Shown here: piece by piece, positions 2 to 34,150 of the stretch
Layout of the letters: the number at the start of each line of letters is the position of its first letter
Numbering within the stretch: position 1 is the first letter of the stretch
From: a virus
DNA: 64,000 nucleotides
Virus record (IMG/VR): IMGVR_UViG_3300031555_005249
Direction: 5' to 3' (one strand)
Notes under the pieces: model-generated
Databases searched by the model: none
The model's input: the letters and a program-made list of their open reading frames with translations, nothing else
What the model was told of the DNA's origin: nothing
Translations under genes and position numbers: made by a program

Positions 2-688
2 TTATTCAAATAGTATTGTATGGATTATAATGTAGATTCAAGAATTGTTAAAGATCAGCTCACAGAAGAACAAGCTTTTAAATATGAAGCAGAGTTAACT
101 TATTACTACAAAGAAAAAGGTGAATGTCATTGTAGTTTAGCTAAACCTGGAACTGGAGGCTACTCTTTTGTATGGACAGAGGATATGAAACAATATTGGT
201 CTAAATATAACCCAATGAAAGCTCAAGAATAGAGAGAAAGAATGTCTAAGAATAATCCTATGAAAAATCCAGAATTTGCAAAAAAAGCTGGAGATAAACA
301 TAAGCGACCTATTATAATAAACAAAACCCGATATGATGGTCTAGTTGATGCAGCAAGAGCATATGGAGTAGCAGAGACAACTGTCGTAGGATGGTGTAAA
401 AAAGGAGGCAATCCTCAAGGAGAATTATGTTATTATGAGGATGAAGGACCCAAACCATTCACTCCTAGTTTAAGTACAAAAGTTCCTATTATTGTAAATG
501 GAATATGGTATGAGAGCAAAGGAGCCGCAGCGAAAGCTATTGGTGCGCCAAATGGTTCTTGTTTCAATAGCGCGTTAAAAAATGGGATTTTATATAAAGG
601 ACAATATAAATGTGAATATGCTAATCAGCAGCCGAGCCAAGGGAATTCCAATAACAGTACCTTGGAAGGTTCAACGACTAACGAGTGA
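2..688 (+). CDS. Homing-endonuclease-like protein, 5' end lies outside the window; carries NUMOD3-type motifs (NPMKNPE); read through in-frame TAG at 11-13 and 230-232
   Basis: ORFs 20-232 and 242-688 are in the same frame, separated only by a TAG. Sequence shows repeated NPMK/NPxG NUMOD3-like motifs, typical of the C-terminal DNA-binding part of GIY-YIG or HNH homing endonucleases. Confidence 0.45.
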
Positions 689-918
689 GGATGGATACCA
701 ATAATCTCGACACGAGTACCGAACTCCTATTTAGATAGGATGAAGATATAGTCTGATCTTATAGGAAACTATAAGAAATACAAGATAAAGAGCTTGTATG
801 ATAACATAATGGTGACACTCGCGCCGCAATTGCTGATGTAAAAACTCAAGGCGTTATAAATACTAACGCTCTTGCTTCACAATTAGCTGCTTGCTGCTGC
901 GACATTGAGAAGGCTAAC

Positions 919-1239
919 ATGGAAAATCGTTTTGCCGCTCAAACTTATAACTGCAATACGCTTCAAGCTATTGACAAACTTGGTGATAGAATCATCGATT
1001 TCATGACGCAAGATAAGATCGCTTCTCTTACTGCAGAGAATCAGTCTCTTAAATTCGCGGCATCACAAGCAAATCAAAATGCATTTATCACTGCAAATCA
1101 AGAAGCTCAGACTGCAGAACTTATTCGCAGACTTTCGACTCCATGTCCCGTTCCTGCGTATGTAGTTCCTAACCCCAACTGCTGCTACGATTATCAAGTA
1201 ACTCGTAACTGCGGTTGCGGTAATTGCGTAAGCTTCTAA
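919..1239 (+). CDS. Small protein with a helical N-terminus and a Cys-rich C-terminus (7 Cys in last 35 aa: PCPVP...NCCYDYQVTRNCGCGNC)
   Basis: ORF track; first gene of a short plus-strand operon opposite to the rest of the window; composition only. Confidence 0.4.
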   Translation: MENRFAAQTYNCNTLQAIDKLGDRIIDFMTQDKIASLTAENQSLKFAASQANQNAFITANQEAQTAELIRRLSTPCPVPAYVVPNPNCCYDYQVTRNCGCGNCVSF

Positions 1240-1267
1240 TTAATTTTAAACGGAGGCTTAGATAAGA

Positions 1268-1687
1268 ATGGAAATTACAGCAAATGCTCTGCAGACGGTA
1301 GAGCTTAATCAAAATGTTCAGTTTACCGACACTGCGGTTTGCGGCAGCTGCTCCATTATGCATCGTGATGGTAGTGGTTTAGTAACTCTTCGTGGTCTTA
1401 CTAACCAATGTCGTGCGAGATTTAAGGCGTTCTTCAGCGGGAATATAGCCATTCCCGCTGACGGAACTGTTGAAGCGATCTCTCTTGCGATTGCTATTAA
1501 CGGAGAGGCTGTGGCTACAACCACAATGATCCAAACTCCAGCGGCAGTAGAAGAATTCGCTAATGTAGCTAGCGCAGTATATATTGACGTTCCTGCTAAT
1601 TGCTGCATCACAGTTAGCGTAAGAAATACTAGTACGCAAGCTATTGATGTTCAAAATGCAAACTTAATTATAGAAAGGGTGGCGTAA
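1268..1687 (+). CDS. Beta-rich 139-aa protein, weak resemblance to exosporium/TNF-like (BxpB/DUF3992-type) proteins
   Basis: ORF track; RBS GGAGG upstream; similarity judged from memory of motif spacing only. Confidence 0.35.
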   Translation: MEITANALQTVELNQNVQFTDTAVCGSCSIMHRDGSGLVTLRGLTNQCRARFKAFFSGNIAIPADGTVEAISLAIAINGEAVATTTMIQTPAAVEEFANVASAVYIDVPANCCITVSVRNTSTQAIDVQNANLIIERVA

Positions 1688-1688
1688 T

Positions 1689-2408
1689 ATGGAAAAATTA
1701 AAATAGATGAAAGAGGCGCTCGTCGGTTGTGTTCAAGGCCAGGTCTATGGCAACATGGAGAAGGTCGACGCTCAAGAGCTTGGCGCCGCCATTGATATGA
1801 TTAAGGATCTTAGTGAAGCTATCTATTATTGTACAATTACTGAGGCTATGGAGGAAGAAGGCGAAGATAAAGAAGGTAAAGGCAAGCACGGAATGATGTA
1901 TTATTCTCGTACAACTCCTATGTATCATATGCCTTATCCTGTTGAGATGTATGACCCTCGCAATAGAGAAAGATATTATTCACCAATGTATGCGCAAAGT
2001 GGCGAAAATAGTGGTGGCTATTCTAGCTCGTCTAATGGCAATAGTTCGAACTCCTCAGGTGGTAATGATGCGCGCGGAGGCGGCACTCGTGGCTACCATG
2101 AGGGAATGATTCCAGGTGAACATTATCCAATGTATAACGATGGTATGTATTCAATGTACGAACGCGGCGGTAATCGAGGATATATGGAAGCTATGAGTCG
2201 TGACCCTAAAGAAGGAAGAAGCGGCGAACGCCGCAAGATGTATATGGACGGTAAAGGTATGAAAGATAAAGCTCATCAAATGAAAGAGCTTGAATCTTAT
2301 ATGCAAGAACTTTCCAGTGATCTCACAGAGATGATTCAAGACGCATCTCCTGAAGAAAAACAACTTCTACAACAAAAGATAAGCATGCTCGCTACTAAAA
2401 TTAAATAA
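1689..2408 (+). CDS. Low-complexity Met/Tyr/Gly/Ser-rich protein (MYxxY repeats), with in-frame TAG at 1704-1706
   Basis: ATG at 1689 preceded by AAAGGGTGG RBS; the frame continues through TAG into the listed ORF 1707-2408. Confidence 0.4.
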
Positions 2409-2728: not shown

Positions 2729-2748
2729 GATATCTTCCTCTTTTTTAC
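2706..2748. terminator. Rho-independent terminator hairpin (aagaggaagatat-tgag-atatcttcctctt + T-run) closing the plus-strand operon and also lying downstream of the RuvC gene
   Basis: Perfect 13-bp inverted repeat followed by TTTTTT, seen in sequence. Confidence 0.6.
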
Positions 2749-3254
2749 CACTCTAAAGCAGAGCTATAATCTTTTTCTTTTTTTGGATGTAAATAAGCAT
2801 GACCAATACAAATTGCGTCTGCAATGTCGTCATTGGTTAAAGATAATCCATAAGCACGGTTTGCAAAGTCTATATCTTTCTATTTTTTCTATTCGCGCTT
2901 AGATCCACGTCCATCTTCTATTCCACATACGGAGCGCCAAGAACTAGGATAAACTAATTCAATTTCTACATTAGGATATTTATCATGAAGCTCGATATGG
3001 ATTAACGCTTGTAAATACATTAATGCTTTAAATGTATTAGTGTTTTTAGTATGATCTGGAATAACTTCTTCCATTACAATTTTTTCAATCTTTAACTATT
3101 CTACTAATGCTAGTATATTATCAACCATTTTATGGATTCGTTTATATAAATCATTTGAAGAAGCTGTAATACAAGTCTATCCAATCAACTCTTTGTCTTT
3201 AAAAATTGCCACACCTGTTGCTTTAGTTGAGGCATCTAATGCAAGTAAGTACAT
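2745..3254 (-). CDS. RuvC-like Holliday-junction resolvase, with 4 in-frame TAG codons
   Basis: Rejoined translation MYLLALDASTKATGVAIF...DDIADAICIGHAYLH carries the RuvC catalytic motifs. The listed ORF 2889-3074 is only the middle fragment. GGAGGTG RBS upstream. Confidence 0.65.
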
Positions 3255-3277
3255 ATATGCACCTCCATTCTGGTTTT

Positions 3278-3546: not shown

Positions 3547-4046
3547 TATTTAGTTCCTGTACTACCAAATCCGCCTTCTCCGCGCGCGGTAGTTCCAATA
3601 GAATTTACCTCATTAAATAGTACTGGTATATATGGAGTAACCACGATTTGTGCAATACGTTCTCCATGTTCTACTATTTGTACTTCATTTGAAGTATTCT
3701 TAAGAGCTACTATTAGTTCTCCTCGATAATCTGAATCAATGATACCTGTTCCATTGGCTAATACAAGACCACGCTTTGTAGCCATCCCAGAACGAGGATA
3801 AACTGCGCCAAACGTGCCTTGAGGTAGCTCAATAGCAATGCCAGTAGAAATCTTACGAACTTCGCCTGGAGCAAGGGTGATACGACTTTGCAATTCAAGA
3901 TCCGCATAAAGATCCCAGCCTGCTGCGTATGTACTGCCCTGCACTGGCTCGTGCGCAGTGGGTGAAAGTTTTACATAATTTACGTGGCTACGCCACATTC
4001 CATTAGTGTCACAAGATGTTACTCCTACCATATTAAAATGCTCCAA
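3546..4046 (-). CDS. dut: dUTP pyrophosphatase (dUTPase)
   Basis: Motifs AAGWDLYA, PRSGMATK, GIIDSDYRGEL are classic trimeric dUTPase motifs. Confidence 0.9.
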   Translation of the reverse strand: MEHFNMVGVTSCDTNGMWRSHVNYVKLSPTAHEPVQGSTYAAGWDLYADLELQSRITLAPGEVRKISTGIAIELPQGTFGAVYPRSGMATKRGLVLANGTGIIDSDYRGELIVALKNTSNEVQIVEHGERIAQIVVTPYIPVLFNEVNSIGTTARGEGGFGSTGTK

Positions 4047-4588: not shown

Positions 4589-5003
4589 TTACTGCTTCTC
4601 CATATGGGAAAAGATAATAAGCAAAACAACCCTCAGGGTTTCTAATCCAAAGTTCCCAACTACCATCTGTTTGATCTTCTATTGCTAAAATTTCTCCTCT
4701 ATTAATCATACACTCAATAACGTCATTAGCTGCATTGTAAACTGTGAGAGGAGGAGTCATATCGCTATTTGTTTTATTTAAGTTAAATAAAGTAAAGTCG
4801 CGCTGTTCATGACATAAAAGCATAAAATACTTTTGTTCAAAATGGTTTAGAAACCAAGTTCTTAAATGTTCACGCGAAAGTTCAAGTTGAGCATCGCTAA
4901 TCTTAGGCTCTTTTTCCATCAACTGCTTATTTATATCATATAGATTTCCAAGAGAGACTTCTGACGTTTGCTTTGGAATTTTATCTTCATAGTTGGCTTT
5001 CAT
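4578..5003 (-). CDS. Hypothetical protein
   Basis: ORF track. Confidence 0.4.
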   Translation of the reverse strand: MKANYEDKIPKQTSEVSLGNLYDINKQLMEKEPKISDAQLELSREHLRTWFLNHFEQKYFMLLCHEQRDFTLFNLNKTNSDMTPPLTVYNAANDVIECMINRGEILAIEDQTDGSWELWIRNPEGCFAYYLFPYGEAVIEY

Positions 5004-5062
5004 TTTTCTTTCTCCTTAAATTGTTCTATATATAATAATTATAATTTAATTTTTTATTTTTG

Positions 5063-5257
5063 TCAAGCTTCTGTTTTTATATATAAACCGCAATTGCAAA
5101 TAGTCCCCTAAGGTGATTCACGAAAATCTTTACACATACATTTAGTATCTTCATTTCGAAATTCTTTTAGCACACAAGGACAATGTCCTTCAGCAGCATT
5201 AATAGCTGTGCGGATCTCAGCGGCAAGTTCATCACTAGCATATCTTTTAATGATCAT
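5063..5257 (-). CDS. Small CPC/CxC-motif redox protein resembling the ferredoxin-thioredoxin-reductase catalytic motif (CPC-x10-CMC-x11-CNC), with one in-frame TAG
   Basis: Hand translation MIIKRYASDELAAEIRTAINAAEGHCPCVLKEFRNEDTKCMCKDFRESP-Q-GTICNCGLYIKTEA; translationally coupled to nrdG (TAATG). Confidence 0.35.
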
Positions 5258-5739
5258 TAACTAATCCTTTCTGCGTATTGATTGGGAGAAGCCAATTTTA
5301 CGCCAAGTATTTCATCATAATGTGACTCAGTATTTGGAATATAGCGCCCAAATTTTATTATGATGTTTGAAAATTGTTTTAATTGAATTAATTCATTTTC
5401 AATCTCATCTTTATTATAACCTGTATAGATAATAATATCATCATTTATAGAATAACATTCTCTAAAAACAAAGATAAGATTTAACAGGTCTTCAAATGTA
5501 TCAAAAGGTTCTAGACCTTGGAAGCATATCGCGCGCGCGATAGGGTTGTTTCTATAAGCTTGTACTATTGAAGTGTTAGCAATTTCTTTATCAGGTGCGG
5601 CCACCAGTGCGCTATTTTGACACACTGGTTGGCCGCATTCACGATCGCATTTAAAACCTTTACAAATAGGCGTTTCTATTGTCATACAAGGAACTTTATA
5701 ATTTACAAAATCTTCAAATATAATTCCTTTTATTTTCAT
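5257..5739 (-). CDS. nrdG: Anaerobic ribonucleotide reductase activating protein (NrdG-like radical SAM)
   Basis: Cys cluster CKGFKCDRECGQPVC near the N-terminus, size about 160 aa, sits directly next to nrdD. Confidence 0.55.
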   Translation of the reverse strand: MKIKGIIFEDFVNYKVPCMTIETPICKGFKCDRECGQPVCQNSALVAAPDKEIANTSIVQAYRNNPIARAICFQGLEPFDTFEDLLNLIFVFRECYSINDDIIIYTGYNKDEIENELIQLKQFSNIIIKFGRYIPNTESHYDEILGVKLASPNQYAERIS

Positions 5740-8700
5740 TTATTAATAGGCTCCCATTTTCTCATTTTATATTCATTAGTTCTTTCTTTTGACCACGTCT
5801 TTATAGGGGTGTAAAAGCCAACGATACGAGTATATTCTGTTTCAACTGGTCGACCACATACTGGACAAGTGCGTCCATAGAAGGCATGGTTATTATCACA
5901 AGCTTGAATCTTGGTATTAAAAGCAAAATATGTTACTCCTGCATCAGAGATATAATTAACCATATCCCAAGCCTTATCAAAACTATCAAATGGGGCATCG
6001 ATATTGGCGTGTAGGATCGAACCTCCATTGCAATATCCATCAAACTCTGCGGCGATACGTACGCGCTCGGCAAGGGTTGTTTGTATACCAAGCGGAATAA
6101 ATTGATTACCATAAAGCGGTAAGTCAAAGATGCTCGCTTCCGGATAAAAGAATTTGTCTTTTTTCATTAGCTTTGCGGCAGCCGACTCTCCGGGGATCTA
6201 TTCAGTATTAACGTGATAATCGGCGCCTACCTCTGCAATAAATTCATCTGCCGTTTGACGTATAGTCTCAAAGATTCTTTTACCAAGCGACGAAGCATTT
6301 TCTGTATAGTAAACATTGCCAAATTCATCTGTACGAGTATAGCCAAAACGCTTCATTGTTTCATATACTCCGATAAAACCAATAGTATTATAAAGATGTT
6401 CAAAGTCGACTAACCCATTAGAAAAATTAGGTAATAGTCCTTTTTCAACATTACGACGAATAATATTACGTACACAATGTAGTGCTTGAAGATTCAAAAG
6501 TGTCAACTTCTTCAATCCACATAGATATTCAAATTCATTAGCACTATCAAGAGCGAGGCGCGCGAGGTTGATTGTAGAGACTTTAACTGAACCGACTTTT
6601 AGTGCGGTACCTCCGATACTATTAAAATAACCTAGGTCTTTAATATCACTCTTCAAACGACAACAGTTAGAAAGTGAAGTTACTGAATCATCAATAAATA
6701 GGTTACTGTCAGACCAGCGCATATTGTGTTTAACTGCCCAGCGCGCAAAATCTTCATCTTGGAATTTACCTTCTTGTTTTAGTAGAGAGATTGAAAGTAC
6801 TGGAAAAGTAAACATATTCTTGTCCCTGATATCAGCAACGGTTTCCATATACCATTTTTGGAATTCAATAATTTCTTCTTCATAGTCAATCATAAATTCT
6901 CCATTAGGGAACTCACTGCCGCCAAATAAAGCTTCGTAGTAAGGACGATCAAATACACTGGTATTAGTAAATGCAGATTGCGACCCATCGCGGACATAAG
7001 GTTGATTCACTGCGTATACAAAACGCTGGAAGTTTTGACGTGCATATTTCTCTCCATTTCCGCTACTCTTGATACCGAGATAGTCTTCTTCCATATCCTT
7101 ATGCCAAAAGTAATACATATAAGGGATGAGATTAGGAAGTCCTACGGCGCCGGAGGAACGATTAGAAGCATAGCTAATAAACTCTTTAACAAAATCAACA
7201 AAAGTAGTTAAATGCTAAGCAGGCTCAGGATTAAAAGGTGCGCCAATAAAATATAGTCCTTTTTCAGCCAGGTCTTTCAGGTCATAAGCAAAACAATTAT
7301 GAGATAGAATGTTGTTGCAAATAAAATGACCTGTTTTTGTTGTTAAGTCATATACCTCAGGGCATTCATCAATATACTCTGAGTTATCAATAACTGAGAC
7401 CCATCCATAGTTATATTCATATTGCTTGTTTTTAAAATTACCTTTACGAGTTAAAGGAATATATTTTTCAGCAATTTTAATACTTCCAATACGAGAAAAA
7501 TATTCTTCGTTCGTTAAAGTGAAGCCAATCCCAAACATTGGTAACTTTTGTTCGAAGCTTCCAGCTCGATTATATCTAAATGGAGTGCGATCTCCTGCAA
7601 AAACCCCTTTGGAATGTAAATACATACTCAATTGATGGCATAGCGTTTCTGAGGCAATACGGATATGACAATGTCTATTTTTATATCCATCAATAGTACC
7701 ATCGCCATCGATCATTCCCGCAATAATTCCATCCATAAATTCAGAAGGATAAGTCATGAAATATGATGGTAACTGCTTAGTTGCAGAAGTCTGACCTTTT
7801 AATAGTGAATTTAACCATTCTTCAAAAGGACTAACCTTTAAATAAATTTTTCTATCTCCACTTTCTGAATATGGAATATCATATTGGTCACAGATATATT
7901 TTAATTTTTCAGCTTGAGGAGAATCTAGTTTTTGAGCAATTACAAATTGACTATTCAGACTATTTCCTTCGGAAAGAGCCATACCTAATATCCATCCTGT
8001 CTCTCTATTATAAGGAATTTGATATACAATTTCTTGATGACTTTCAGAATATTTATTAGGCTGTATTGTAAAGACTCGATACTCACTAGTTACATCCTTT
8101 GCAGGAATATCTCCACAATCGGTAATAATAGGGTGATCTTCTGTTACAATTTGTGATAAACCATTTGCTAACTTGATAAAACGCATAGGTTTATTATTTG
8201 TGTGTTTAACTGCGCGAGTAATCTTAGTCCAACATTTTTCTCCAGTTTCTTCATTAATATCAAGTATCTCGATATTTTTCGGGAAAAGTGCATTTTGTTC
8301 AATAGATACATCATATTTTTCTTCTGCTTCTGTATCCATATACAAAATATTTTCATACAAATTCTTAAGTGCAAAAGTGTATTCACGATGCACCTTGTCT
8401 CTTACTGTTACAAGTTCTTCACCCTTATAGCAGTAATGTTTAAAGGTCGAGGTATCAGCATCATGCATGTAGAGCTGACCAATCCATTCGGCGCGCAACC
8501 ACTCATTTGCACGTTTAAAACCAAAATGTTTTTGCATCTCATAATGAATTTTATTATAAGCTAATAATTTTCTATGAGGTTTTGGCATTTCGTTTAAGAG
8601 AGTTACAATATCTTTTTTACTAACATTACTATTGCCATCAATACTCGCGTCAGCTACGACTTTGGTATCGATAAATGAACTAATAAAATCTGTGTAACTT

Positions 8701-8885
8701 AATTGTTCATCAGCAAATCCATTAAGCTTTGCCATTTCAGTTCCAAATTCATCTTGCATTTTGTTATAAGCAGTAACAAAATTTTTCTTTAATTTAACAT
8801 TAACTTCCATATCTCCAATGATATCCTCCTGTTGTTTGTAAAAATCCTTGACAGCATCGAGATATGTTTTCATGATGTATGCCAA
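5736..8885 (-). CDS. nrdD: Anaerobic ribonucleoside-triphosphate reductase NrdD, one continuous frame with 2 in-frame TAG (6198-6200, 7215-7217) and a LAGLIDADG intein
   Basis: Three listed ORFs (7215-8885, 6198-7118, 5736-6167) are in frame and separated only by TAG. C-terminus has the CPVCG Zn ribbon and the glycyl-radical region TRIVGFYTP. Confidence 0.8.
7296..8432 (-). mobile_element. Intein (379 aa) with LAGLIDADG homing-endonuclease domain inside NrdD
   Basis: Starts with Cys after ...TSTFKHY, ends ...ILSHN followed by Cys+1. Internal motifs LGMALSEGN and IAGMIDGDG. Confidence 0.75.
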
Positions 8886-9480
8886 GCTCTTTCTCTGCTT
8901 CTGCTAGAGATTTAAAGTTTTGATTTAGCTCCACACAATAAACTGGAGTAACTCTTTTATCTTCAGATAGAGGAAGATTATTTGATAAATAATCTTCATA
9001 GTATGTCCAATGAAATTTATATGCAGTGTGTAATTTTCCACGACAACACGCAATAATATTTGCATTAGCAAAACCCTTTAATCGTTCAATTTCTTTTGCG
9101 CTATCAAAAACCTTTTGTGTTTCTAAACATATAATTTTTCTTTTTGTTTTACAACTATTACTCATTTTTTGACGAGATTCTCTTGAATATTCATTATTCA
9201 ATCCGCCACTTTTTATATTATAGCCACTATTCACAGTATCATATTTTGTGATAAGTTCTTCTTCTTTTTGATTAGCTTCCTGTAATGTTAAGTTCTCATA
9301 TAAAATAGTCTATTCAAAATTATCCCATCCATATTTTTCAATAGCATGATAAAATTTAACACAGCCAGTATAGTTAGAGGGGTGACAGCGACGCGTGATA
9401 TCTTTAGACTAACCAATATATTTTTTGCCATTTATTTTATTGGTATAACAATAAATGCAATATTGATTATCCATTAGCAT
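8800..9480 (-). CDS. GIY-YIG homing endonuclease (I-TevI-like, NUMOD C-terminus), 2 in-frame TAG
   Basis: N-terminus MLMDNQYCIYCYTNKINGKKYIG-TAG-SKDI...R..H...AIEKYGWDNFE; a TAG sits at the conserved Gln of the YIGQ motif. Free-standing between nrdD and nrdH, as seen with T4 mob/seg genes. Confidence 0.75.
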
Positions 9481-9691: not shown

Positions 9692-9766
9692 GTCATTTTC
9701 TCCTTTTCATTTAATTTTGACATTATAATATAATTTTTATTATAATTAGTTAAATTATTTTTGACC

Positions 9767-14530: not shown

Positions 14531-15418
14531 TTATTCTATATACCTCCAATAATATCCATATGCTTTTCTTTGCTTTCTGGCAGCTGCGCAAATATTACTT
14601 TTATCTTGTAATCCTAGAGCTCTAGCTGCATCTGCTCCAGAGTCATATTCAGCAATTATGCTATTATCTAACGTGAGTTGTTGAATTCTTTTCTTAGGGC
14701 GTCCACTAGATAACTTATTCTAATAAATTTGTACCCACTCTTGGATATCTCTTTCATCTGCTTTGTATTTCCAAAGAAAGCCGTAAGCACTTTTCTATTT
14801 CTAAGCACATACCTAACTAATTGCTGTTTGTTGAAAACCATTAGCCCTGCCGCACTCTGAGGCTGATTCCCATTCTTGGATAAAATATCCATTTAAATCA
14901 TACTGTAGTACAGGATAAGCACATCGTTTTGCTACTGCGCAACCAAATCTTGCGGCTATCTCTTCTCGTGAAATTCCTGCTCCTCTTAATCGAAGTCGGG
15001 CAGTTTTTTTTGAACAGCCTATTTTTTCAGCAATTTCTTTAATTAAAAGACCTTGATTCCAGCCATCAAGAAAAAGCTGAGTGGGATATAGAATCGCCCC
15101 TTGTCCTCCAAGAACTGCATTGTATCCATTATTAGGGTCGGTGCTGTCAAAATATTCTATATAATACATTTCTCGCTCAAATCTAATTTCATCAGGGCAT
15201 TTCTCTAGCGTTTCAATAATAAAATTTTGTTCTCCGTATTTTCGTATAGCACAAGAAATATGATAATAATATCCATGATCACCTTCTTTAGAATGAGCCC
15301 TTCTTATATGTTCCCTCCACCTTGTCTCAACCCCTCGAATAGTTTCTCCTATATAAACTTTATTGTTTATTTGGTTGGTAATTTTATAAATATAAGCCAT
15401 AAAATGCTCTCCTTTCAC
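14531..15418 (-). CDS. GIY-YIG homing endonuclease with NUMOD1/NUMOD3 C-terminal modules, 6 in-frame TAG
   Basis: N-terminus YIYKITNQINNKVYIGETIRGVETRWREH...E...N. The frame continues through the TAG at 14813 for about 95 more aa and ends in the NUMOD1 signature ...AARALG...GYYWRY. Confidence 0.8.
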
Positions 15419-15478
15419 TTTGTTCTTATATATATAAGAAAAAAGTGATAATAAAATTATTGAGATTTGACCTTAATT

Positions 15479-15655
15479 TTACTCTAAAGCATTTTCAATC
15501 TCGTTACATTTATCTTCTATTGCTTGAATAATAAGCGCCATTGCAGGAAAACTTAAACCCGCTCTATTCATATTATCTACAAATCTACAATCTTCACTTA
15601 TTAAAAATTCTCTTACCTCTTGAATTGTTTTTTTATCAATTAATGTGCTAAACAT
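15479..15655 (-). CDS. Small hypothetical protein (58 aa)
   Basis: ATG with AAAGGAG RBS directly downstream of a consensus promoter. Confidence 0.3.
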   Translation of the reverse strand: MFSTLIDKKTIQEVREFLISEDCRFVDNMNRAGLSFPAMALIIQAIEDKCNEIENALE

Positions 15656-15693
15656 ATTTATTATTCTCCTTTCGCATACTTTTATATATAATA

Positions 15694-15722
15694 ATTATAA
15701 CTTATTTTTTACAAAAAATCAA
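15694..15722 (-). promoter_or_regulatory. Consensus promoter TTGATT-17-TATAAT
   Basis: Member of the repeated promoter family; followed by the RBS of the 15479-15655 gene. Confidence 0.5.
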
Positions 15723-15747
15723 GCCGTATCACCTGATACGGCTTTTA
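15721..15747 (-). terminator. Hairpin terminator (aagccgtatcaggtgatacggctt + T-run) after gene 15748-15993
   Basis: Inverted repeat and T-run seen in sequence. Confidence 0.55.
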
Positions 15748-15993
15748 TCATTTTAAACCAAGCATACGACATATATCTAAATAACTTTCACTTACCTCAT
15801 AGGGCTCATTATCAGAATCAGCATTTATCCAAATTTCAGTGCCAGTTAGAATTTCACGACTTGGCCCAAATTGTTCGATATATGCCGTATTTAGCATTAT
15901 TTTATTTTGAGAATGAAAAAGAGTTACTTCAATAAACATATTATTTTTCCCTCCAAATATGAATTGGTAAATTGTTTTCACAAGGAAAGACAT
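15748..15993 (-). CDS. Hypothetical protein
   Basis: ORF track. Confidence 0.35.
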   Translation of the reverse strand: MSFLVKTIYQFIFGGKNNMFIEVTLFHSQNKIMLNTAYIEQFGPSREILTGTEIWINADSDNEPYEVSESYLDICRMLGLK

Positions 15994-16177
15994 TAATCAT
16001 CTTATGATCTTGACTGTAAGAACAATAAACATCAAAACCTCGTTTCTTCATTTGTCTTTCGATAATCTCTTCTTTAAGTAAGCCAATATGTGCATAGTTC
16101 TTAGCTCGCTGTTCTGCGATACATTTATCAAGATACTTAAAAGTTTCTTTTATTGCTTGTTCATATTTTTCTGTCAT
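15941..16177 (-). CDS. Hypothetical protein
   Basis: ORF track. Confidence 0.35.
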   Translation of the reverse strand: MTEKYEQAIKETFKYLDKCIAEQRAKNYAHIGLLKEEIIERQMKKRGFDVYCSYSQDHKMINVFPCENNLPIHIWREK

Positions 16178-16496
16178 TTATTTTCCATGCTCCTATTTCA
16201 AAGTTATTTAGATCTATTAGCGGCGGATCGCCAATGAAAGCGATTTTTATTGGCTTTTGAAGTTCGCTTACGCCAAGTATCCAAAGAGAATTGGGATCTA
16301 GCCTCTCTGGGTCGTAGTATACTTCTACAGGTATCTGTTTTTCTTTTATTTTTTGTCTGAATAAAAGATACAATTCTTCAAAAGATAGCTCTCTTACATC
16401 AGTCGTTGCTTTTATGTTCTCAATTAGATCGTGTAATTCTGCTTCTATATATGGTTTCATTGCTACCTCATTTCCGTTGATAATATTCTTCTTCAT
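16161..16496 (-). CDS. Hypothetical protein
   Basis: ORF track. Confidence 0.35.
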   Translation of the reverse strand: MKKNIINGNEVAMKPYIEAELHDLIENIKATTDVRELSFEELYLLFRQKIKEKQIPVEVYYDPERLDPNSLWILGVSELQKPIKIAFIGDPPLIDLNNFEIGAWKINDRKI

Positions 16497-17440
16497 TTTC
16501 TTTTGTTAATAGAAATCTTGAAGTTTCTAATTTTAAATCGTTTAGGTCATACTCTTGATCATATGGGATACGAATTAATGGAATATTATGTTCAAAACAA
16601 TATTTATTTTTAAGTAAATCGTTGTTGCGAGTTTCTTCAAAATGCTCTTTTGTATTCCAAGTATTTATAGTATCTTTGCGATATGAAAAATGTTGTTGTC
16701 CATCAAATTCAATAATATAAGAGTCTTCTATATAAAAATCAAATCTAGCCTTTGCACCAGAGGCTAACAAACAGTCTTTAAAACTCTTTTGGTTTGTAAA
16801 GCTAATATCGGCTTCTTGTAACATTTGTGTAATTTTTGTTTCATTATAGGATGCGCCTAAACAGCCGCAACTTTTTGTTTGCCCCACAGTTAAATAGCCA
16901 GAAGGAACTTCCGTATAGTTACCGCAATCACATAAGCATTTCCAAATTACATAAGATCCAATCCTTTTTTCAGTTGGTTCTAAAGCAGTTAATAAGCCAA
17001 ATTTTTGATTACTTAAATCAATAAAATGCCTAGGTTTACAAAATCCACAGCTTTTGGTGTCGCCAGCCGTAAGACTTGAGCCCATTACTATATGCGCCCT
17101 TCCACAAGAACATTTGCAATTCCAAAAGGCATGGCCACCTTCTGTTTTGGCTAAACTTAAAACTGTAAGTTCTCCAAAAGTTTGTCCTGTTAAATCTCGA
17201 ACTGGTCTTCCGCCACTTTTATTTTCGTGTTTAAGACAGCCACAAGATTTAGTATGATCTGATGTTAAATGGTTTTTAGACACCACTAATAAAGTCTTTG
17301 CTTCACATTGACATTCGCAGAGCCAAAAGACACCTTTTCTCCCTGTTGGATGCTCTACTCTATATAGCGCTTTTAAACGATTAAACTATTTACCAGAAAT
17401 ATTTTCAGCTTGCCCTATTGGAATTTGTTTGTACTCCATT
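16468..17440 (-). CDS. Putative homing-endonuclease-like protein: N-terminal repeated Zn-ribbon modules (LTxGxTKSCGC, 4 copies) plus a C-terminal Vsr/DUF559-like PD-(D/E)xK nuclease motif (FDFYIEDSYIIEFDGQQH), 1 in-frame TAG
   Basis: ATG at 17440 (MEYKQIPIG...) runs in frame through a TAG into the listed ORF 16468-17286. Confidence 0.5.
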
Positions 17441-19483: not shown

Positions 19484-19981
19484 TTACTCTTCCTCCAATT
19501 TTTTACCCATTCTCAACTTCATCAGTCTTCCGCAGAATTCCGATTGAGTCAATACTGTTCTGCTCTCATCATTTTTACCTATTGAGTGCGTTAAGATAGC
19601 GGGTTTAGATGCTTCAAGAGCTCGCCTAAATCCTTCGTTCTGGTATAGAGCGTTGTAAACTCTGTTTAGAAGAATCTGGTATTCCTCGCTATCTCTCTTG
19701 TATTCTACTCCCTGCCAGTAGAGAGTCTGATCTCTCCACCACTTCTTATCTTTACCCTTAAACTTTGCGGCCTTGCCTACCAGGGTGCAGACATGGCGCT
19801 GCATATCGGGTGATTTAAATTTTAATGACTGCAAGAACCCCTCCATTGATGCACATTCGACGCCGTCTATTACGAATGGGTGCGGCGCAAAGTTGCTCAA
19901 TGTGCAAGATGGGTATGCAGACCCGCTTCCTATATCCATTTTATTTTCCTCTTTTCTTATTCTTATAATATATTTTAACAT
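19484..19981 (-). CDS. NADAR-domain (YbiA-like, DUF1768) protein
   Basis: LSNFAPHPFVIDGVECASMEGFLQSLKF matches the YbiA/NADAR signature FSNF...F..DG..Y.S.E..FQA.KF. Confidence 0.65.
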   Translation of the reverse strand: MLKYIIRIRKEENKMDIGSGSAYPSCTLSNFAPHPFVIDGVECASMEGFLQSLKFKSPDMQRHVCTLVGKAAKFKGKDKKWWRDQTLYWQGVEYKRDSEEYQILLNRVYNALYQNEGFRRALEASKPAILTHSIGKNDESRTVLTQSEFCGRLMKLRMGKKLEEE

Positions 19982-22353: not shown

Positions 22354-23106
22354 TCATCCTTTCTTTAAATAATTTTCTACATCTTCAATAAACAACCAAT
22401 GATAACCATAGCCTTTAGTTTCACCTTTATTACGACAACTTCTACGAATGTGAGAACCATCTGTTTTTCCTAGTGCTCGAGCAGCGGTTTGACTTGATGA
22501 ATACTCTTGTTTGGTTTCTATGCAATATACTGGTTTACTATTGGTTTTAACTGAATTTATTCGCATTTTATCTAATTTAATTTTTTCTTCTTCTTTATGA
22601 CTATCCCAGTATACACGAGATGCCATTCTTCCTTTTAAGGTATTATTTTTTCGTTCTTCAAAAGAAGAATTTTCTATATATTTTACATTAATTTCCTTTA
22701 AAAATACTTTCTTTTCTTCTTTTTTATCTTCTGGTAAATTTTGCCAAGTATTTTTAGAAGCAATACCAATTTTCTTTTTAGTTTCTTCTGTGTGCAAATG
22801 TCCAAGCTGACCTCCTTTTGTTAAATTATATCCAAAATCAGGATTGTCACTTTTATAAAATTGGATATAAAATTTTTCCCAATAATCAGCTTCATTTTGA
22901 CTTAGCAAGTTTTGTTTTAAAATTATATGCTCAAAATTATCCCATCCATATTTTTCAATGGCAGAATAAAAAAGAGGGCTTTTAATATATTGCTTTCCAT
23001 TAGCTCTCCATCTCTACTTTATATTACAGCTTTGTCCTATATATCTTTTCTAATTTTGCTTATTAACATGAGCATAGATACACCATTTTTTAATATTTTC
23101 ATTCAT
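22354..23106 (-). CDS. GIY-YIG homing endonuclease with NUMOD3/NUMOD1, 2 in-frame TAG
   Basis: Rejoined N-terminus MNENIKKWCIYAHVNKQN-Q-KRYIGQSCNIK-Q-RWRANG...SAIEKYGWDNFE. C-terminus has HTEETKKKI and AARALG...GYHW. Confidence 0.75.
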
Positions 23107-26882: not shown

Positions 26883-26889
26883 TGTTGCC

Positions 26890-27775: not shown

Positions 27776-28264
27776 TTATTGAGCTGTATTTATCAAATCT
27801 TTAAGTTCCGTCACAATAAGGTCAAGCGCTTCTGTCTGTTCGCGAGAGCACTGAGAAACTTTTTGTCCTTTACCAAGATATTTCTCTATGCATTGACTAA
27901 TACGAGGTTGCCAATAAGTTTTGAATGTTTCTTCGTCGCTTTGAACCGAGAGGTCTTGAATCATTGAGTTAAACTGCATCATAAGTTCATCGAAATCAAG
28001 TTCTTTTGAAACGAATGTATGCAAGTTGGCGCCAGTATCTGTGAAGTATTGAGTTCCATCCTCAGCCGCCTGTCTATCAATAGCATCTCCTATTGCATTA
28101 ACAAGAGCATTATAGTTGAAGTCAATATAATCAGGCGTATACTTAAATCTACTTCCAGCTACGAAACGAGGAGTTCCGCGCATAAAGAGTTTTGTAGATT
28201 TCTCACCAGACTCAGACTCAACAGTTCTCGCATATCCTATTATGTCCTTTAATACCCTCTTTTT
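27776..28264 (-). CDS. Sak4-like (AAA_24) recombination ATPase, exon 2
   Basis: Begins exactly after the group I intron terminal G. Sequence KKRVLKDIIGYARTVESESGEKSTKLFMRGTPRFVAGSR is remembered to resemble the AAA_24 C-terminal region. The listed ORF start is a TTG artefact. Confidence 0.5.
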   Translation of the reverse strand, partial: KKRVLKDIIGYARTVESESGEKSTKLFMRGTPRFVAGSRFKYTPDYIDFNYNALVNAIGDAIDRQAAEDGTQYFTDTGANLHTFVSKELDFDELMMQFNSMIQDLSVQSDEETFKTYWQPRISQCIEKYLGKGQKVSQCSREQTEALDLIVTELKDLINTAQ

Positions 28265-29250
28265 CAAGATATTTTAATGGGAATAGACTATATCTTCATC
28301 CATTTTAAACGGTGGATGTCATGCACTTCGATTTAAAGGATTTTCACCTACTTTTATATTATTATAAAAGCCCTACTCCTGTTGAGGAAATTTCATCCTC
28401 CAGTGGGATAGTCGTTGAACCTTCTCCTATTCGGAGCTTGGCTGCTGATTGCCCAATTTAATCAATTTTTAACATTCGCACTTAGATTTCTTTCATTCTT
28501 ATGCTGTAGTTTGATTAACTCTAAGGGGTTTCCAGCAATTCACATGATTTGCTTAATGGATTGCTCCATTAAGGGCCTTATATATTTCATATTTTCGTCT
28601 CAACCGAGAGGCCTCGGTTGAATGTTCATAAATTTTATTTAAAATTTGTACAACTGCAGCGCCTTCTTTATGAATTTGATAAGCAGAGGTTCCACAAGGA
28701 CTTACTTTATTATCAAACTCTAAAATTTCTAGCATTTGTTTTGTGCAGATCTCAGTTTGACTGACAAAACTTAAACTAGGAATATTGTTTCTATCTTCTC
28801 TAATGTGAATACTACCATCTGCATCTAGCAATCCTCTTGCAAAATCATAAATATATTCATTAGGAATGTTTTCAAGGGGAATACTAAAAATAGAGGTTTT
28901 TGCAGGTACTATATTATATTGTGCTAAATAACGTTTTAACTCTGCCGAGTTTATAGATACAGTTAAAGCATGACATCCAGTGTTATTAGTACGCTCTGTA
29001 ATGGGCGCATTAGATTCAAAGAATGCTTGTAAATTTTCAAGCTGCTCTCTATCTATATCTTTTAACTCAACTCTTACTCTGGCTTCATTTTTAGCTACAT
29101 TTCCATCTCCAGCTAAAAATCCAAGCCAATAATATTTTTCATGAGGGTCTATTTTAATGTTTGTTAAATTTAAAGGATATTTTCTCAAAAAACTTTCAAC
29201 TCCTTCTTTAAGAGAGCGAAAATATGAAATAAAAATGTTAAGCCATACGG
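28265..29250 (-). mobile_element. Group I intron (minus strand) splitting the Sak4-like gene and carrying a LAGLIDADG homing endonuclease ORF; exact 5' splice site not resolved (about 29241-29335)
   Basis: Canonical core elements in order: P AAATTGGGCAA (28449-28459), Q AATCAGCAGC (28441-28450), R GTTCAACGACTATCC (28406-28420), S AAGATATAGTC (28287-28297). Intron ends with G at 28265. A possible P10 (CTCTT with exon-2 AAGAG) is present. Confidence 0.6.
28553..29188 (-). CDS. LAGLIDADG homing endonuclease (double-motif), encoded within the group I intron
   Basis: Motifs LGFLAGDGNV and LLDADGSI; TTG start preceded by AAGGAG. Confidence 0.8.
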   Translation of the reverse strand: MRKYPLNLTNIKIDPHEKYYWLGFLAGDGNVAKNEARVRVELKDIDREQLENLQAFFESNAPITERTNNTGCHALTVSINSAELKRYLAQYNIVPAKTSIFSIPLENIPNEYIYDFARGLLDADGSIHIREDRNNIPSLSFVSQTEICTKQMLEILEFDNKVSPCGTSAYQIHKEGAAVVQILNKIYEHSTEASRLRRKYEIYKALNGAIH

Positions 29251-29807
29251 TTTACAATATTACGAGGTTTATTATCAAGAGTAGGAACAATCTGATTATA
29301 CTCATTGCCATTTTGATCCTTAAAGGTTTTGTCTTGCGCGTGAGAAATAATTACTAAGCCGTATCCTAATTGAAGGATTGAACGAAGCGCGCTATCAAAC
29401 TCTTGCGCTGCCATTTTGAAGCCCTTTCCGTAACCAATGTCACCGATGCTATCGACGCCTATAGAGCCATCTGGACGAACTGCATTGGCGCAAATATATT
29501 TCTCACAATAGTCATAGGCTATATCAGCTGTATCAAGGATAATAGTTTCGAATCTAGCTTTAACCTGTTCATTCTTTAACTGGCGCAAGAATTTTTTAAA
29601 CTCAGACCAACTATTAATAGGTTGTGCCATGGCGCCGGGAATTGCATTATATCCTTTTTCAAAAGCCGCCAAAAGATGATTAGGGAATTTAGTCGCGGTA
29701 GTAGTTTTACCGGTCTTTGCGTCTCCATAGAAGAAGACGCAATAACCGCGCATATCTCTTGAAACCTAATGAGGCTAAATATCAAGTAAATTAAAATCTG
29801 CCATTTT
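29238..29807 (-). CDS. Sak4-like (AAA_24) recombination ATPase, exon 1 (the 3' part of this ORF probably continues into the intron); 2 in-frame TAG near the N-terminus
   Basis: MADFNLLDI-Q-PH-Q-VSRDMRGYCVFFYGDAKTGKTT... has the Walker A and ILDTAD motifs. ATG at 29807 is in frame with the listed ORF. Confidence 0.6.
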
Positions 29808-32185: not shown

Positions 32186-32187
32186 TC

Positions 32188-32340
32188 CTCCTTTATTCCA
32201 TCTTGATATTTCTTTTTCATTTTCTTTAGTACGCGAATTGCATCATCAAAAGAGTCTTCATAAGTTTCATGCTCAAATTCGCCGCTATCCTCCCATTCAA
32301 GAGAGATTTCAATTCTTGTTACTTTCATTTGCCACATCCT
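32188..32340 (-). CDS. Small acidic hypothetical protein (50 aa)
   Basis: Hand translation; start overlaps the neighbouring gene. Confidence 0.25.
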
Positions 32341-32527
32341 TTATATAATCTTTAATAACTTCATTATTAAGTAGATTAAACAGTTCTTCTTGGTTATGCT
32401 TATCTACTATTATGGCGCAAGCTTCGTTCCAGCTTAGGTTTTCAGCATGATACTCTGCGCCTTCGTCTGTTGTTATCCAAATATCTACTTTCATTTCAAT
32501 TTTAACTCCTTGCGTATTTTCTTCCAT
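32309..32527 (-). CDS. Hypothetical protein
   Basis: ORF track. Confidence 0.35.
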   Translation of the reverse strand: MEENTQGVKIEMKVDIWITTDEGAEYHAENLSWNEACAIIVDKHNQEELFNLLNNEVIKDYIKDVANESNKN

Positions 32528-32539
32528 TTTTGGTCGTAC

Positions 32540-32632
32540 ATTTTAAAAACAAAGCTAAAACAGTCTCCCCAAGACCAAAACTCTTTTTCTTCAATATCAC
32601 CAATTTCATCTGTCCATTCTAGTTTAATATAC
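32540..32632 (-). CDS. Very small hypothetical protein (about 30 aa)
   Basis: ATG immediately after the exon-2 stop (TAAATG). Confidence 0.2.
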
Positions 32633-32634
32633 AT

Positions 32635-32860
32635 TTAACTATTTCCGCGAGTTTTATTCAGTCCAAAATCATATGTCTGATAGAGGTCAATATAAAACTT
32701 CTCCTTTTCATTTAATTCATTGATATTACATTTTTCAAGTATTTCAAAAGTAAAGTTATCAATACCCTTTTCTTTTGTAAATGCATAAAGTTGACTTGTT
32801 ACAGGGGTATCGATACCTAAGCTGCATTTGACATGCGTTACCCAGCGCTCTTTAATGTTG
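32635..32860 (-). CDS. Exon 2 of the membrane-anchored coiled-coil GIY-YIG-domain protein (C-terminal half of the GIY-YIG domain)
   Basis: Sequence (V)NIKERWVTHVK...FTKEKGIDNFTFEILEK...GLNKTRGNS; joins exon 1 to give ...YIGQAV|NIKERW. Confidence 0.6.
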
Positions 32861-34150
32861 CATTAATTTTGACTATTTTTTACTGTAATTTTTATTACAG
32901 GAAACCATTTCGGCATTTAAAGTACTTCGTTTCCTAAAATACTACTATGTGCTAATAATAGCCCTACTTCCCCGCCCATAAGGCCTAGGGAATAGTCGAT
33001 ACAGGTTTTTCAATTAATCCATTATTTTCTAGCAGGATAATCATAATCTTTAAGAATATAAGTTTTTCCTAAATTAATATTACTTATAGTTGAACGCCCT
33101 ATGTTATATTGTGCACCAATATTATCCATAGAAGTATTAGTATTACGTAACAGATCTAAAATATTCTAAACATCCTCTAAAGTTAAATTATGATTATTGC
33201 GAATGTTTTTTGCTCTAATAGGATAACTATATTTCCCTATTTCTGCAAATTTTCTTCCATTATTAATGTCTCTTAATACCCTGATTGGAATATTATATTT
33301 AATATCTATACCACCTTGAATTGGTAAATCCCAACGATACAATAAATCTTCTTTTAAATTAACTAGCTCTTCTTCGGAGGAAAAATAATCTAAAACTTCT
33401 GTCTTACACGCTGAGTCATGATTATTTTTTCTTAATGGGTAAACTAAGTTTGGATTAACATAGGTTCTACCTGTTGAAATATTTAATATAGTACCTTGTC
33501 CTACTCCATATTTATTACCTATCTCTGTTAAAGAAAACTCTGTATGATTAATTAACAAATCAATTATTTCTTTAAGTTGATTTTCATTTAAAGCTGCATT
33601 AGGATTTTCAGTCCCTCGTTTCCCCGAAGCGTCTCCTCCTCGGGTTTTATTGTATCCGTGTCCATCTTTAATATAGGTTTTATAAAAGGAAATCCAATAT
33701 CTTTCTTTATCATCTAATAACGATAAGTCAGAAACTGTTTCAAGTAATTCAAACTCATCAATAATAATATTGTATTCTTTCATTTTTTGCTCACACAATA
33801 GAAGTTCTCTTGAACCATGTCCAGCTTGACTATAAGAATTATGCTCCATAAGTCTAGCTCGAATATTTTGAGCCTATCCAATGTAAGCTTTTCCGTTTGG
33901 GTAATTAATTTTATAAATTCCGCTAATAATGTCATTTGGTGTCATCTTAGATAAAAATAATTTTTGCATTTTATGCCTCCTATAATGTTATATTCATCAG
34001 TTGTTCATATATATATTATTTTTATGGAAGATGGATTAATCAAAATTTCCCACGAGATTGTATTTTATTAAAAAATATTTTCCTCGTTAGCCACTATAAG
34101 TTAGCGACCCCTAGCAGCTACTAGGTAAAGTTTTTCATCGGCCAACATTG
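32861..34150 (-). mobile_element. Group I intron carrying a GIY-YIG homing endonuclease ORF, inserted in a gene that itself encodes a GIY-YIG domain
   Basis: 5' splice site after U at 34151, closing a P1 with a U-G pair (exon CGGU with intron GCCG). A 7-bp P10 pairs intron AATGTTG with exon-2 CAACATT. Core R-like ATCGACTATTCC and S-like ATAGTC elements are present. Intron ends with G at 32861. Confidence 0.65.
33022..33970 (-). CDS. GIY-YIG homing endonuclease (intron-encoded) with HTH C-terminal modules, 2 in-frame TAG
   Basis: MQKLFLSKMTPNDIISGIYKINYPNGKAYIG-TAG-AQNIRARLMEH...GYNKTRGG; a TAG sits at the conserved Gln of YIGQ. The frame reads through the TAG at 33166 to a TAA at 33022. Confidence 0.75.

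Follow-up and report, generated by a model that had tools for sequence, protein, structure and literature searches.

The stretch of viral DNA described here (IMG/VR record IMGVR_UViG_3300031555_005249, 64,000 nucleotides, hereafter the window) belongs to an uncultured phage, probably one infecting Firmicutes, with a genome of roughly 130-140 kb, and constitutes its module for replication and nucleotide metabolism. The module is heavily colonised by homing elements, and their homing endonuclease genes (HEGs) carry more in-frame TAG codons than the surrounding genes, which is the subject of this analysis. The window is AT-rich (GC ~36%), with transcription directed rightward to position 2728 and leftward from 2745 on, Shine-Dalgarno sites upstream of most genes, and a cluster of five ordinary tRNAs near the right end (ARAGORN, Rfam). 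The closest deposited DnaE is YorL of SPbeta, at ~40% identity, and a near-identity DNA search against deposited phages returned a 180-nt patch only and no close relative. IMG/VR, on the other hand, holds a large clade of relatives (contigs up to ~190 kb) with conserved gene order and 60-75% identity to the window at the protein level; loci from these contigs are denoted below by L numbers.

Nine homing-endonuclease elements are found in the window by Pfam and PHROG scans (Table 1): five GIY-YIG open reading frames (ORFs), one Cys-rich ORF with a PD-(D/E)xK-like domain, one HNH ORF, one LAGLIDADG intron ORF, and one LAGLIDADG intein. The cut-offs are 22.6 bits for PF01541, 24.8 for PF13392 and 35.8 for PF14890, and the gathering score of RF00028 is 50. 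Together the elements occupy 7.3 kb, equivalent to 11% of the window; in the first 34 kb their share is 20%. The density of detectable HEG-like ORFs is 0.14 per kb here and 0.03 per kb in 80 related loci, none of which has more than two such ORFs (the count in relatives is an undercount for families unlike those of the window). Four complete GIY-YIG or PD-(D/E)xK-like ORFs are free-standing between conserved genes, and one free-standing HNH ORF lies further on. Of the interruptions that carry a HEG (one each), two are group I introns supported by Rfam and the third is an intron-like insert.

Table 1. Position, strand, supporting evidence and in-frame TAG codons of the features discussed in the text
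Feature	Position	Strand	Evidence	In-frame TAG
g0, 3' part of an intron-borne HEG ORF, cut by the window edge	2..688	+	PHROG 314 E=1.4e-5	2 (11-13, 230-232)
Group I intron core, overlapping and downstream of the g0 ORF	579..775	+	RF00028 45.8 bits, E=1.9e-8; below gathering score
ORF, only the tail of exon 2 of the Gly-rich gene	919-1239	+
g5, RuvC-like Holliday junction resolvase, not a HEG	2745..3254	-	PHROG 159/827 E=1e-19; weak RuvC/RuvX Pfam matches	4
Perfect promoter	5038-5066	-
nrdD, anaerobic ribonucleotide reductase	5736..8810	-	PF13597 282 bits	2 in the extein (7215-7217, 6198-6200)
LAGLIDADG intein in nrdD, 379 aa	7296..8432	-	PF14890 Intein_splicing 28.4 bits, below cut-off	0
gX, GIY-YIG and NUMOD, between nrdH and nrdD	8800..9474	-	PF01541 22.2 bits; I-HmuI_NUMOD-like 31.4 bits; PHROG 314 E=4e-35	2
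Perfect promoter	9717-9746	+
g17, GIY-YIG and NUMOD/helix-turn-helix (HTH), ends 3 nt upstream of dnaE	14531..15400	-	PF01541 32.7 bits; NUMOD1 27.2 bits; PHROG 314/7168	4
g22, Cys-rich repeats and C-terminal PD-(D/E)xK-like domain	16468..17439	-	PHROG 374/559/9084/7140, E down to 3e-48	1
g31, GIY-YIG, between primase and recJ	22354..23106	-	PF01541 28.0 bits; PHROG 314/7168	2
AAA_24 (Sak4-like) ATPase gene, exon 2	27776-28246	-
Group I intron splitting the AAA_24 gene	28247..29240	-	RF00028 78.2 bits at 28265-28620
g39, LAGLIDADG HEG ORF in the AAA_24 intron	28553..29188	-	PF14528 31.7 bits and LAGLIDADG_1; PHROG 4645 E=7.5e-32	0
AAA_24 gene, exon 1	29241-29804	-
g49, exon 2	32635-32860	-
Intron-like insert in the GIY-YIG domain of g49, 1290 nt, carries g48	32861..34150	-	boundaries, domain restored on joining, uninterrupted relatives
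g48, GIY-YIG with HTH repeats, in the g49 insert	33022..33969	-	PF01541 30.0 bits; PHROG 7168 E=3e-22	2
g49, exon 1: transmembrane (TM) helix, coiled coil, start of GIY-YIG domain	34151..35118	-		4
Perfect promoter	35486-35514	-
Suppressor tRNA, anticodon CTA	43615..43689	-	ARAGORN; Rfam tRNA 58.9 bits
Perfect sigma-70 consensus promoter TTGACA-17-TATAAT	43800..43828	-	12/12 match; ~110 nt upstream of the suppressor tRNA
Sigma-70-family factor, phage-encoded	50148-51083
g74, HNH endonuclease	52279..52905	-	PF13392 38.4 bits; PHROG 59 E=9e-24	1 (in HNH domain)
Hint-module protein, unusual virion-type gene	53008-54195	-
BspA-type leucine-rich-repeat protein, 945 aa, virion-type	54192-57029	-	repeated 'ITFxIxG...GMTWxEW' modules	2
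Protein with major-vault-protein shoulder and repeat domains, 826 aa, virion-type	57552-60032	-

The four complete GIY-YIG ORFs (gX, g17, g31 and g48) are all matched by PHROG 314/7168/5123. The PF01541 score of gX lies 0.4 bit under the cut-off, and NUMOD1 is matched in the same ORF. The HTH repeats of g48 are Sigma70_r4- and CENP-B-like, and g31 has no Pfam DNA-binding match. The fifth ORF of this group, g0, has no Pfam match, and its catalytic motif would lie beyond the window edge; it has NUMOD-like repeats and is putatively of the GIY-YIG type, as suggested by PHROG 314, of which it matches the same profile region as the complete ORFs. The PHROG families matched by g22 are labelled as HNH, homing or intron-encoded nucleases. 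Its sole Pfam match is DUF2726 (weak, 16.9 bits, below the cut-off and seen at relaxed thresholds), and it has no PDB sequence match. The mobility of g22 is supported by its homologues in relatives, which occupy several different sites, among them the interior of the dUTPase and ligase genes and the position just upstream of gyrB.

The original prediction, made from the sequence alone, had listed five GIY-YIG HEGs, one HNH, one LAGLIDADG intron HEG, one LAGLIDADG intein, one Vsr-like Zn-ribbon endonuclease (g22), and a GIY-YIG domain on a host-like gene (g49), with free-standing HEGs between nrdH and nrdD, upstream of dnaE, and between primase and recJ. This census is essentially right. The free-standing positions, the LAGLIDADG ORF within its RF00028 intron, the intein, and g49, split by the insert that carries g48, are all borne out, as are four of the five GIY-YIG HEGs, by PF01541 and PHROG. 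The corrections concern the edge-truncated g0, typed from PHROG 314 only, the HNH ORF, which is present but outside the region where it had been placed, the TAG counts, and g22, which is indeed a mobile nuclease-type ORF, its Vsr-like fold not being confirmed.

Comparison with related phages reveals empty sites at the same positions, which mark the HEGs of the window as insertions of mobile elements. In 10 of 10 relatives, nrdH and nrdD lie -5 to 8 nt apart. Of 46 relatives, 20 have less than 150 nt between primase and recJ, and in L039 this site is taken by a HEG. Upstream of dnaE, at the site of g17, a HEG is present in L071 and none in L001; at the position of g74 an HNH ORF is present in L161, L162 and L195 and none was detected in L199. 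The AAA_24 gene is uninterrupted in 33 of 33 relatives. In relatives, the HEG families of the window are found elsewhere: within dnaE and the genes for dUTPase and ligase, in the interval from dnaE to gmk, and immediately upstream of gyrB. Examples of HEG ORFs in or at the start of core genes are those at dUTPase of L069 and L071, at ligase of L081 (11844-12812), and upstream of gyrB in L162 (20490-21338); in addition, L080 has a GIY-YIG ORF at 4896-5735 inside dnaE, and the dnaE of L049 and L050 spans 5163 nt. In the window dnaE, dUTPase, ligA and gyrB are intact. The HEGs within core genes of relatives imply that the intron and intein target repertoire of the clade is much larger than the window shows.

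The interrupted genes are as follows. The junction of the AAA_24 intron was placed by homology (exon 1 ends with U, the intron with G). The gene split by the group I intron at the left edge is Gly-rich, contains TM segments, and is membrane/structural-like; its exon 2 reaches position 1239. Its counterpart in relatives is uninterrupted and 214-290 aa long, and the window from ~790 aligns to the C-terminal part of it. The third interrupted gene, g49, is resident and non-mobile. The boundaries of its insert are group-I-like (exon 1 ends ...GCGGT, with U; the insert ends ...AATG, with G) and such that the joined exons give a full PF01541 match of 31.7 bits, and the GIY-YIG domain is uninterrupted in the g49 homologues of L009 and L043, which lie upstream of the g41 homologue. 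The term intron-like is used for the insert because no RF00028 match was obtained up to E=10 (whole window, 451 nt, 1.3 kb, and short sub-windows included). A CGACTA...TAGTC pair is present near its 3' end. The nrdD intein has Cys1, a terminal His-Asn and Cys+1 (CYKGEEL...ILSHN, followed by CFAYDL) and a visible LAGLIDADG-like motif, GIIAGMIDGDG. Its insertion is precise, the flanking residues being direct neighbours in 4 aligned intein-less relatives; the intein is missing from all aligned relatives, and an expanded nrdD was found in no relative.

Re-calling of the ORFs with TAG as a sense codon fuses several fragments into full-length genes. TAG is predicted to be read as Gln in the window phage via its own CTA-anticodon tRNA (code 15), because Gln is the residue most often opposite TAG, the acceptor features of this tRNA are Gln-like, and a TAG replaces an invariant Gln in nrdD. 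In pairwise alignments, 96 of the 261 cells opposite window TAGs are Q, the commonest residue. The only window TAG at a conserved column, in nrdD, aligns with Q (NTEQIPGES in relatives, NTE-TAG-IPGES in the window), and in two HEGs (gX and g48) TAG takes the place of the Q in the YIGQ motif. Alignment of the suppressor tRNA with phage tRNA-Gln and tRNA-Glu shows an unpaired 1:72 position and G73, and the tRNA-Gln genes of close relatives are alike. A tRNA(CTA) is found at the same position in the close relatives L081, L161, L195 and L199. With an overall use of 1.7 per 1000 codons, TAG is a legal but disfavoured Gln codon here.

It is very improbable that the TAGs are instead real stops and the endonuclease ORFs broken remnants or miscalled. 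HEGs do commonly degenerate, and these ORFs appear fragmented under the standard code, but they are interrupted only by TAG and never by TAA, TGA or a frameshift. The domain and PHROG matches run across and past the TAGs (that of g48 to PHROG 7168 covers residues 17-307, across both of its TAGs, and the PF13597 match of nrdD likewise spans two), the Q of YIGQ is a conserved residue, TAG also occurs within conserved stretches of the essential nrdD and recJ and of the AAA_24 gene, and the cognate suppressor tRNA is present. The possibility that the HEGs are decaying pseudogenes was rejected on the intact ORFs with domain matches beyond TAG. A full-length product of a TAG-bearing HEG would then require the suppressor tRNA to read TAG, and standard-code annotation of the clade breaks every GIY-YIG HEG, the resolvase, nrdD, and a tail-fibre gene.

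After refinement of the ORF starts by Shine-Dalgarno sites and N-terminal homology, 34 in-frame TAGs are counted in 19,495 codons. Their density is not uniform across gene classes: the HEGs have 14 TAGs in 2,427 codons (7 of 9 elements carry TAG), and all other genes 20 in 17,068 (11 of 77 genes), giving an odds ratio of 4.9 (p=2.5e-5). HEGs thus account for 41% of the TAGs (14/34, or 18/34 together with g49) on 12% of codons. Since the share of TAG among Gln codons is also raised in the HEGs (13.7%, compared with ~3.5% elsewhere, p=1.5e-4), the excess is not an effect of Gln content. The six GIY-YIG-domain proteins, including g49, contain 16 TAGs in 1,703 codons (9.4 per 1000, p=4e-9), and the four non-GIY elements 2 in 1,121 codons (not significant). 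No gene is denser in TAG than the RuvC-like resolvase g5, with 4 in 169 codons; this gene is located at the end of the replication operon. ORFs of unknown function have 1 TAG in 3,553 codons (HEGs versus these, p=3e-5). The original prediction that HEGs are the main TAG carriers therefore stands as far as enrichment is concerned, with the reservation that the excess is found in GIY-YIG proteins only and that the top gene is not a HEG. The predicted range of 1-6 TAGs per HEG is wrong, as the count is 0-4 per element and the LAGLIDADG ORF g39 and the nrdD intein have none. The four TAGs of g17 all lie in the DNA-binding half, after the catalytic domain, while both TAGs of g31 are within the catalytic domain. 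The orthologues of g74 in close relatives have 0 TAG.

The same distribution is seen in related phages, where TAG was counted per 1000 homology-covered codons in ~80 dnaE-centred loci. The values are lowest for DnaE (0.1), primase (0.2), SF1 helicase (0.7) and NrdD (1.0), followed by DnaB (2.4) and RecJ (3.9), and then by the g22-type HEGs (6.2), the GIY-YIG HEGs (10.0), and one HNH family (10). The RuvC-like resolvase reaches 19.8 (23 loci, from both Q-type and E-type genomes, in which TAG aligns with Gln and Glu, respectively, as described below), and the structural-looking genes of the opposite strand 12-29. Overall, in the same loci, HEGs have 7.6 TAGs per 1000 codons, replication-strand genes 1.38, and opposite-strand genes 10.5. 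When stratified by locus and by bin of GC content at third codon positions (GC3), 65 HEG TAGs are observed where 17.1 are expected (z=12.8), and within the same GC3 bin the densities are 8.0 for HEGs and 1.2 for other genes. Because of this clade-level excess within GC3 bins, the view that AT-richness alone produces the surplus of TAG was rejected. The HEGs located at other sites in the closest Q-type relatives carry 5 TAGs in L081, 4 and 2 in L162, and 7 in L195, with almost none in the neighbouring conserved genes. About half of the relatives' HEGs are without TAG. Because the enrichment is repeated in relatives, the association of TAG with HEGs belongs to the clade and is no chance feature of the window.

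One explanation for this link is that GIY-YIG and g22-type HEGs form a pool circulating among TAG-recoded phages, and that TAG-rich, AT-rich coding is brought in from the pool or from donors heavier in TAG. The restriction of the window signal to GIY-YIG proteins, even the non-mobile g49, fits such a family-level codon usage, as do the presence of the same HEG families at many different sites, their lower GC3 (0.20 compared with 0.29 in neighbours in the window, 0.12 compared with 0.18 in relatives), and a HEG TAG density independent of the locus background (in L042, for example, 23.9 compared with 0.36 per 1000 codons). We nevertheless consider it improbable, since the TAGs in HEGs follow the code of the genome in which they reside: Glu stands opposite them in E-type loci (82 of 235 cells), and in Q-type loci Gln is the commonest residue (7 of 40, a weak plurality). 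This match indicates that the TAGs arise, or are kept, in place. The TAG sites are moreover seldom common to homologues, the excess persists within the GC3 bin, and RuvC, a syntenic core gene, has the same or a higher TAG density.

The level of TAG use expected without constraint was approximated by TTG/(TTG+CTG), the only other synonymous choice between C and T at the first codon position, and compared with TAG/(TAG+CAG). For the HEGs and g49, TAG/(TAG+CAG) is 0.62 and the proxy 0.90, whereas for all other genes the values are 0.06 and 0.72; the RuvC-like resolvase uses TAG and never CAG. Ordinary genes thus avoid TAG ~12-fold relative to the proxy, and the GIY-YIG endonucleases, g49 and the resolvase are close to the unconstrained level, the HEGs near but not above it. 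By standard reasoning, synonymous sites should be saturated at 60-75% protein identity, and the low TAG content of the core genes therefore reflects selection and not lack of time. The TAG positions are uniform along the HEG ORFs (Kolmogorov-Smirnov p=0.93), so that N-terminal clustering of TAG as a gate was rejected. Conserved TAG sites among the GIY-YIG homologues were rejected as well, with at most 2 sequences sharing a TAG column.

Since TAG use in HEGs does not exceed the proxy and other genes are far below theirs, relaxed avoidance of TAG would suffice to explain the pattern, a reading to which we assign a probability of about 0.55. Reading of TAG needs the suppressor tRNA and would compete with host release factor 1, so each TAG should cost yield or time. 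Genes needed promptly or in bulk would be purged of it. Selfish endonucleases, acting in catalytic amounts and with the phage not dependent on their output, would escape the purging and drift to TAG-rich coding, and the resolvase would likewise remain unpurged. The result would be a suppressor-dependent throttle on HEG translation, which is probably a by-product of relaxed selection rather than an evolved limiter of toxicity.

Several observations weigh against relaxed avoidance. Low GC3 accounts for part of the window signal, as the odds ratio falls to 2.5 (p=0.048) when HEGs are compared with non-HEG genes of GC3<0.24. The excess in the window is confined to the GIY-YIG proteins, with the four other elements at background, a restriction that might reflect a cause specific to this family. 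The TAG-richest genes of E-type relatives are the structural ones (10-18 per 1000 codons), whose products are required in large amounts, so decoding of TAG is not always costly. Finally, the ORFs of unknown function, presumably weakly constrained too, are almost TAG-free; drift in unimportant genes is hence insufficient, and a timing or yield component is needed.

According to an alternative proposal, made in the original prediction and by Borges et al. for another phage group, the TAGs are kept by selection: DNA-cutting proteins would be made later, or in smaller amounts, as long as the suppressor tRNA is scarce and replicated genome copies that could serve for repair are not yet available. 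In intron ORFs, TAG would also keep ribosomes off the folding ribozyme, as a counterpart of the delay imposed by hairpins at the ribosome-binding site (RBS) on I-TevI and other T4 HEGs. The enrichment does repeat across independent genomes, insertion sites and three nuclease families (GIY-YIG, g22-type, and one HNH). The other TAG-rich conserved gene, the RuvC-like resolvase, also encodes a DNA-cutting enzyme, RecJ is richer in TAG than the polymerase, primase and helicases (0.1-0.7), and weakly conserved ORFs of the same operons are nearly free of it. T4 HEGs on early/middle transcripts are translationally delayed (PMC2988022), and the same reading has been published for a TGA-rich intron endonuclease of Agate phages (10.1101/2021.08.26.457843). 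Against selection for TAG, its use in HEGs does not rise above the neutral proxy and the sites show neither positional bias nor conservation. Many HEGs are TAG-free, including the intron LAGLIDADG ORF here, and all four TAGs of g17 come after its catalytic domain.

The position of the suppressor tRNA adds to this. The window contains four perfect TTGACA-N16-18-TATAAT promoters where 0.08 are expected, and one of them precedes the tRNA. Owing to this perfect host-type promoter and to its location inside the replication module, the tRNA is probably made early by the host polymerase, so any delay may be short, and attenuation is likelier than a strict late gate. (One of the other perfect promoters, at 9717-9746, faces opposite to the local transcription, and the phage encodes a sigma-70-family factor of its own.) Taken together, the predicted dependence of HEGs on the suppressor follows from the sequence and their enrichment in TAG is real, whereas the adaptive part of the claim, that suppressor-dependent translation limits HEG toxicity, is weakened by the neutral proxy, the TAG-free HEGs, the unconserved and uniform sites, and the early-type tRNA promoter; we regard a selected delay as unlikely, though it is the strongest of the alternatives. 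Slightly more doubtful still is a broader version, in which TAG would be a selected code-level throttle on the DNA-cutting genes of the clade (GIY-YIG and PD-(D/E)xK-like HEGs and RuvC), with a Gln/Glu code barrier that divides the HEG pool among phages of the same community.

For the question of what in-frame recoded stops do in phages, the HEGs in early operons constitute a natural internal reporter, with TAG-free neighbours and TAG-rich HEGs on the same transcripts. The analysis also shows that a neutral synonymous expectation is needed as the yardstick when carriers of a recoded codon are identified; measured in this way, the signal here is avoidance elsewhere and not a preference of the HEGs.

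In most relatives the meaning of TAG appears to be different. At columns with at least 80% conservation, their TAGs fall on Glu 68 times (~20 loci) and never on Gln in those loci; RecJ has columns with Glu in 40-47 sequences and TAG in 1-8. In the E-type loci, 40-70% of the pairwise cells opposite TAG are E. These are L023, L028, L030, L034-L037, L039, L044-L046, L052, L061, L064, L066, L067, L069 and L071 in the dnaE region, and L104, L110, L118, L123, L132, L148, L168, L171, L173, L180 and others in the gyrB and g78 regions; loci taken around gyrB and around the g78 homologue show the Glu signal again. The Q-type comprises the window, L001, L013, L076, L081, L162 and L194, and conserved-column Gln opposite TAG occurs only for the first four of these. 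This signal, which comes from outside the window, looks like a TAG-to-Glu lineage beside the TAG-to-Gln one. A possible cause is a tRNA-Gln-derived suppressor charged with Glu by a non-discriminating glutamyl-tRNA synthetase and not amidated by GatCAB. The tRNA(CTA) of the E-type relatives was not found in the loci around dnaE, gyrB and the g78 homologue, which are parts of contigs. No literature report of TAG read as Glu in phages was found in a limited library, which is weak evidence of novelty. The survey of Borges et al. recorded only TAG-to-Gln and TGA-to-Trp among phages with a code unlike that of the host; as this main survey of recoded phages did not see TAG-to-Glu, the relatives merit a study of their own.

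Two further observations concern decoding in the relatives. In L195, a homologue of the RNA-ligase-like g68 of the window (15463-16854) has four TAGs in its last 55 codons, beyond the region of homology; at the ends of some genes of these phages, TAG may still act as a leaky terminator. In the close relative L162, one tRNA carries the anticodon TCA and would read TGA, and the place of tRNA(CTA) in the window and other relatives is taken by an unusual tRNA-like gene whose anticodon has 4 bases (the two genes are at 3640-3715 and 19661-19759). Three unusual virion-type genes (Table 1) lie at 53008-60032 of the window.

The link between a HEG and a recoded stop, together with the idea of delay, is already known for one intron HEG family in TGA-recoded phages. 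In Agate phages, this intron endonuclease family prefers the recoded stop, and the in-frame stops were proposed to delay the endonuclease (Borges et al., bioRxiv 10.1101/2021.08.26.457843). As here, these are stop-recoded phages of gut or rumen, with a HEG family in an early gene and a recoded stop significantly over-used relative to the standard codon; by that measure, the HEGs of the window show the same over-use among their Gln codons. The differences are that TGA is read as Trp in Agate phages, while TAG would be read as Gln here, and that the Agate carrier is a single intron ORF, in place of mostly free-standing GIY-YIG ORFs between replication genes and a PD-(D/E)xK-like family. Furthermore, the structural genes of the window are TAG-poor, the top carriers being the HEGs and the RuvC resolvase, and the synonymous-site proxy indicates relaxed avoidance rather than preference.

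The load of homing elements resembles that of T4, whose 15 HEGs, making up 11% of coding sequence, are considered exceptional (PMC2988022); the nine elements here take up a comparable share of the 64 kb. As with the seg/mob genes and I-Tev of T4, GIY-YIG and HNH ORFs are situated between conserved genes of replication and nucleotide metabolism, nrd included, HEG-bearing group I introns interrupt such genes, and the distribution in relatives is sporadic. T4 HEGs are expressed from early/middle polycistronic transcripts and limited at translation (PMC2988022), and a candidate limiter at that level is seen here too. T4 employs RBS-sequestering hairpins, late promoters and autorepression, whereas the only candidate limiter seen in the window is the codon itself. 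The window phage also has an intein and LAGLIDADG elements, both of which T4 is without, and its homing is predicted from sequence. With the code-15 phages (crAss-like, Lak, phAss-1), the window has in common a phage-encoded CTA suppressor tRNA, TAG aligned with Gln, and an uneven use of TAG, with core replication genes the poorest; it differs in belonging to another lineage, in its low TAG use, and in having sister genomes with an apparent TAG-to-Glu code. Known parts are thus combined here, namely a T4-like load of seg/mob-type, intron and intein HEGs and the uneven codon use of code 15. To these are added a TAG-to-Gln lineage that probably infects Firmicutes, free-standing GIY-YIG carriers, replication of the pattern across the clade, RuvC as a co-carrier, and a test against neutral expectation.

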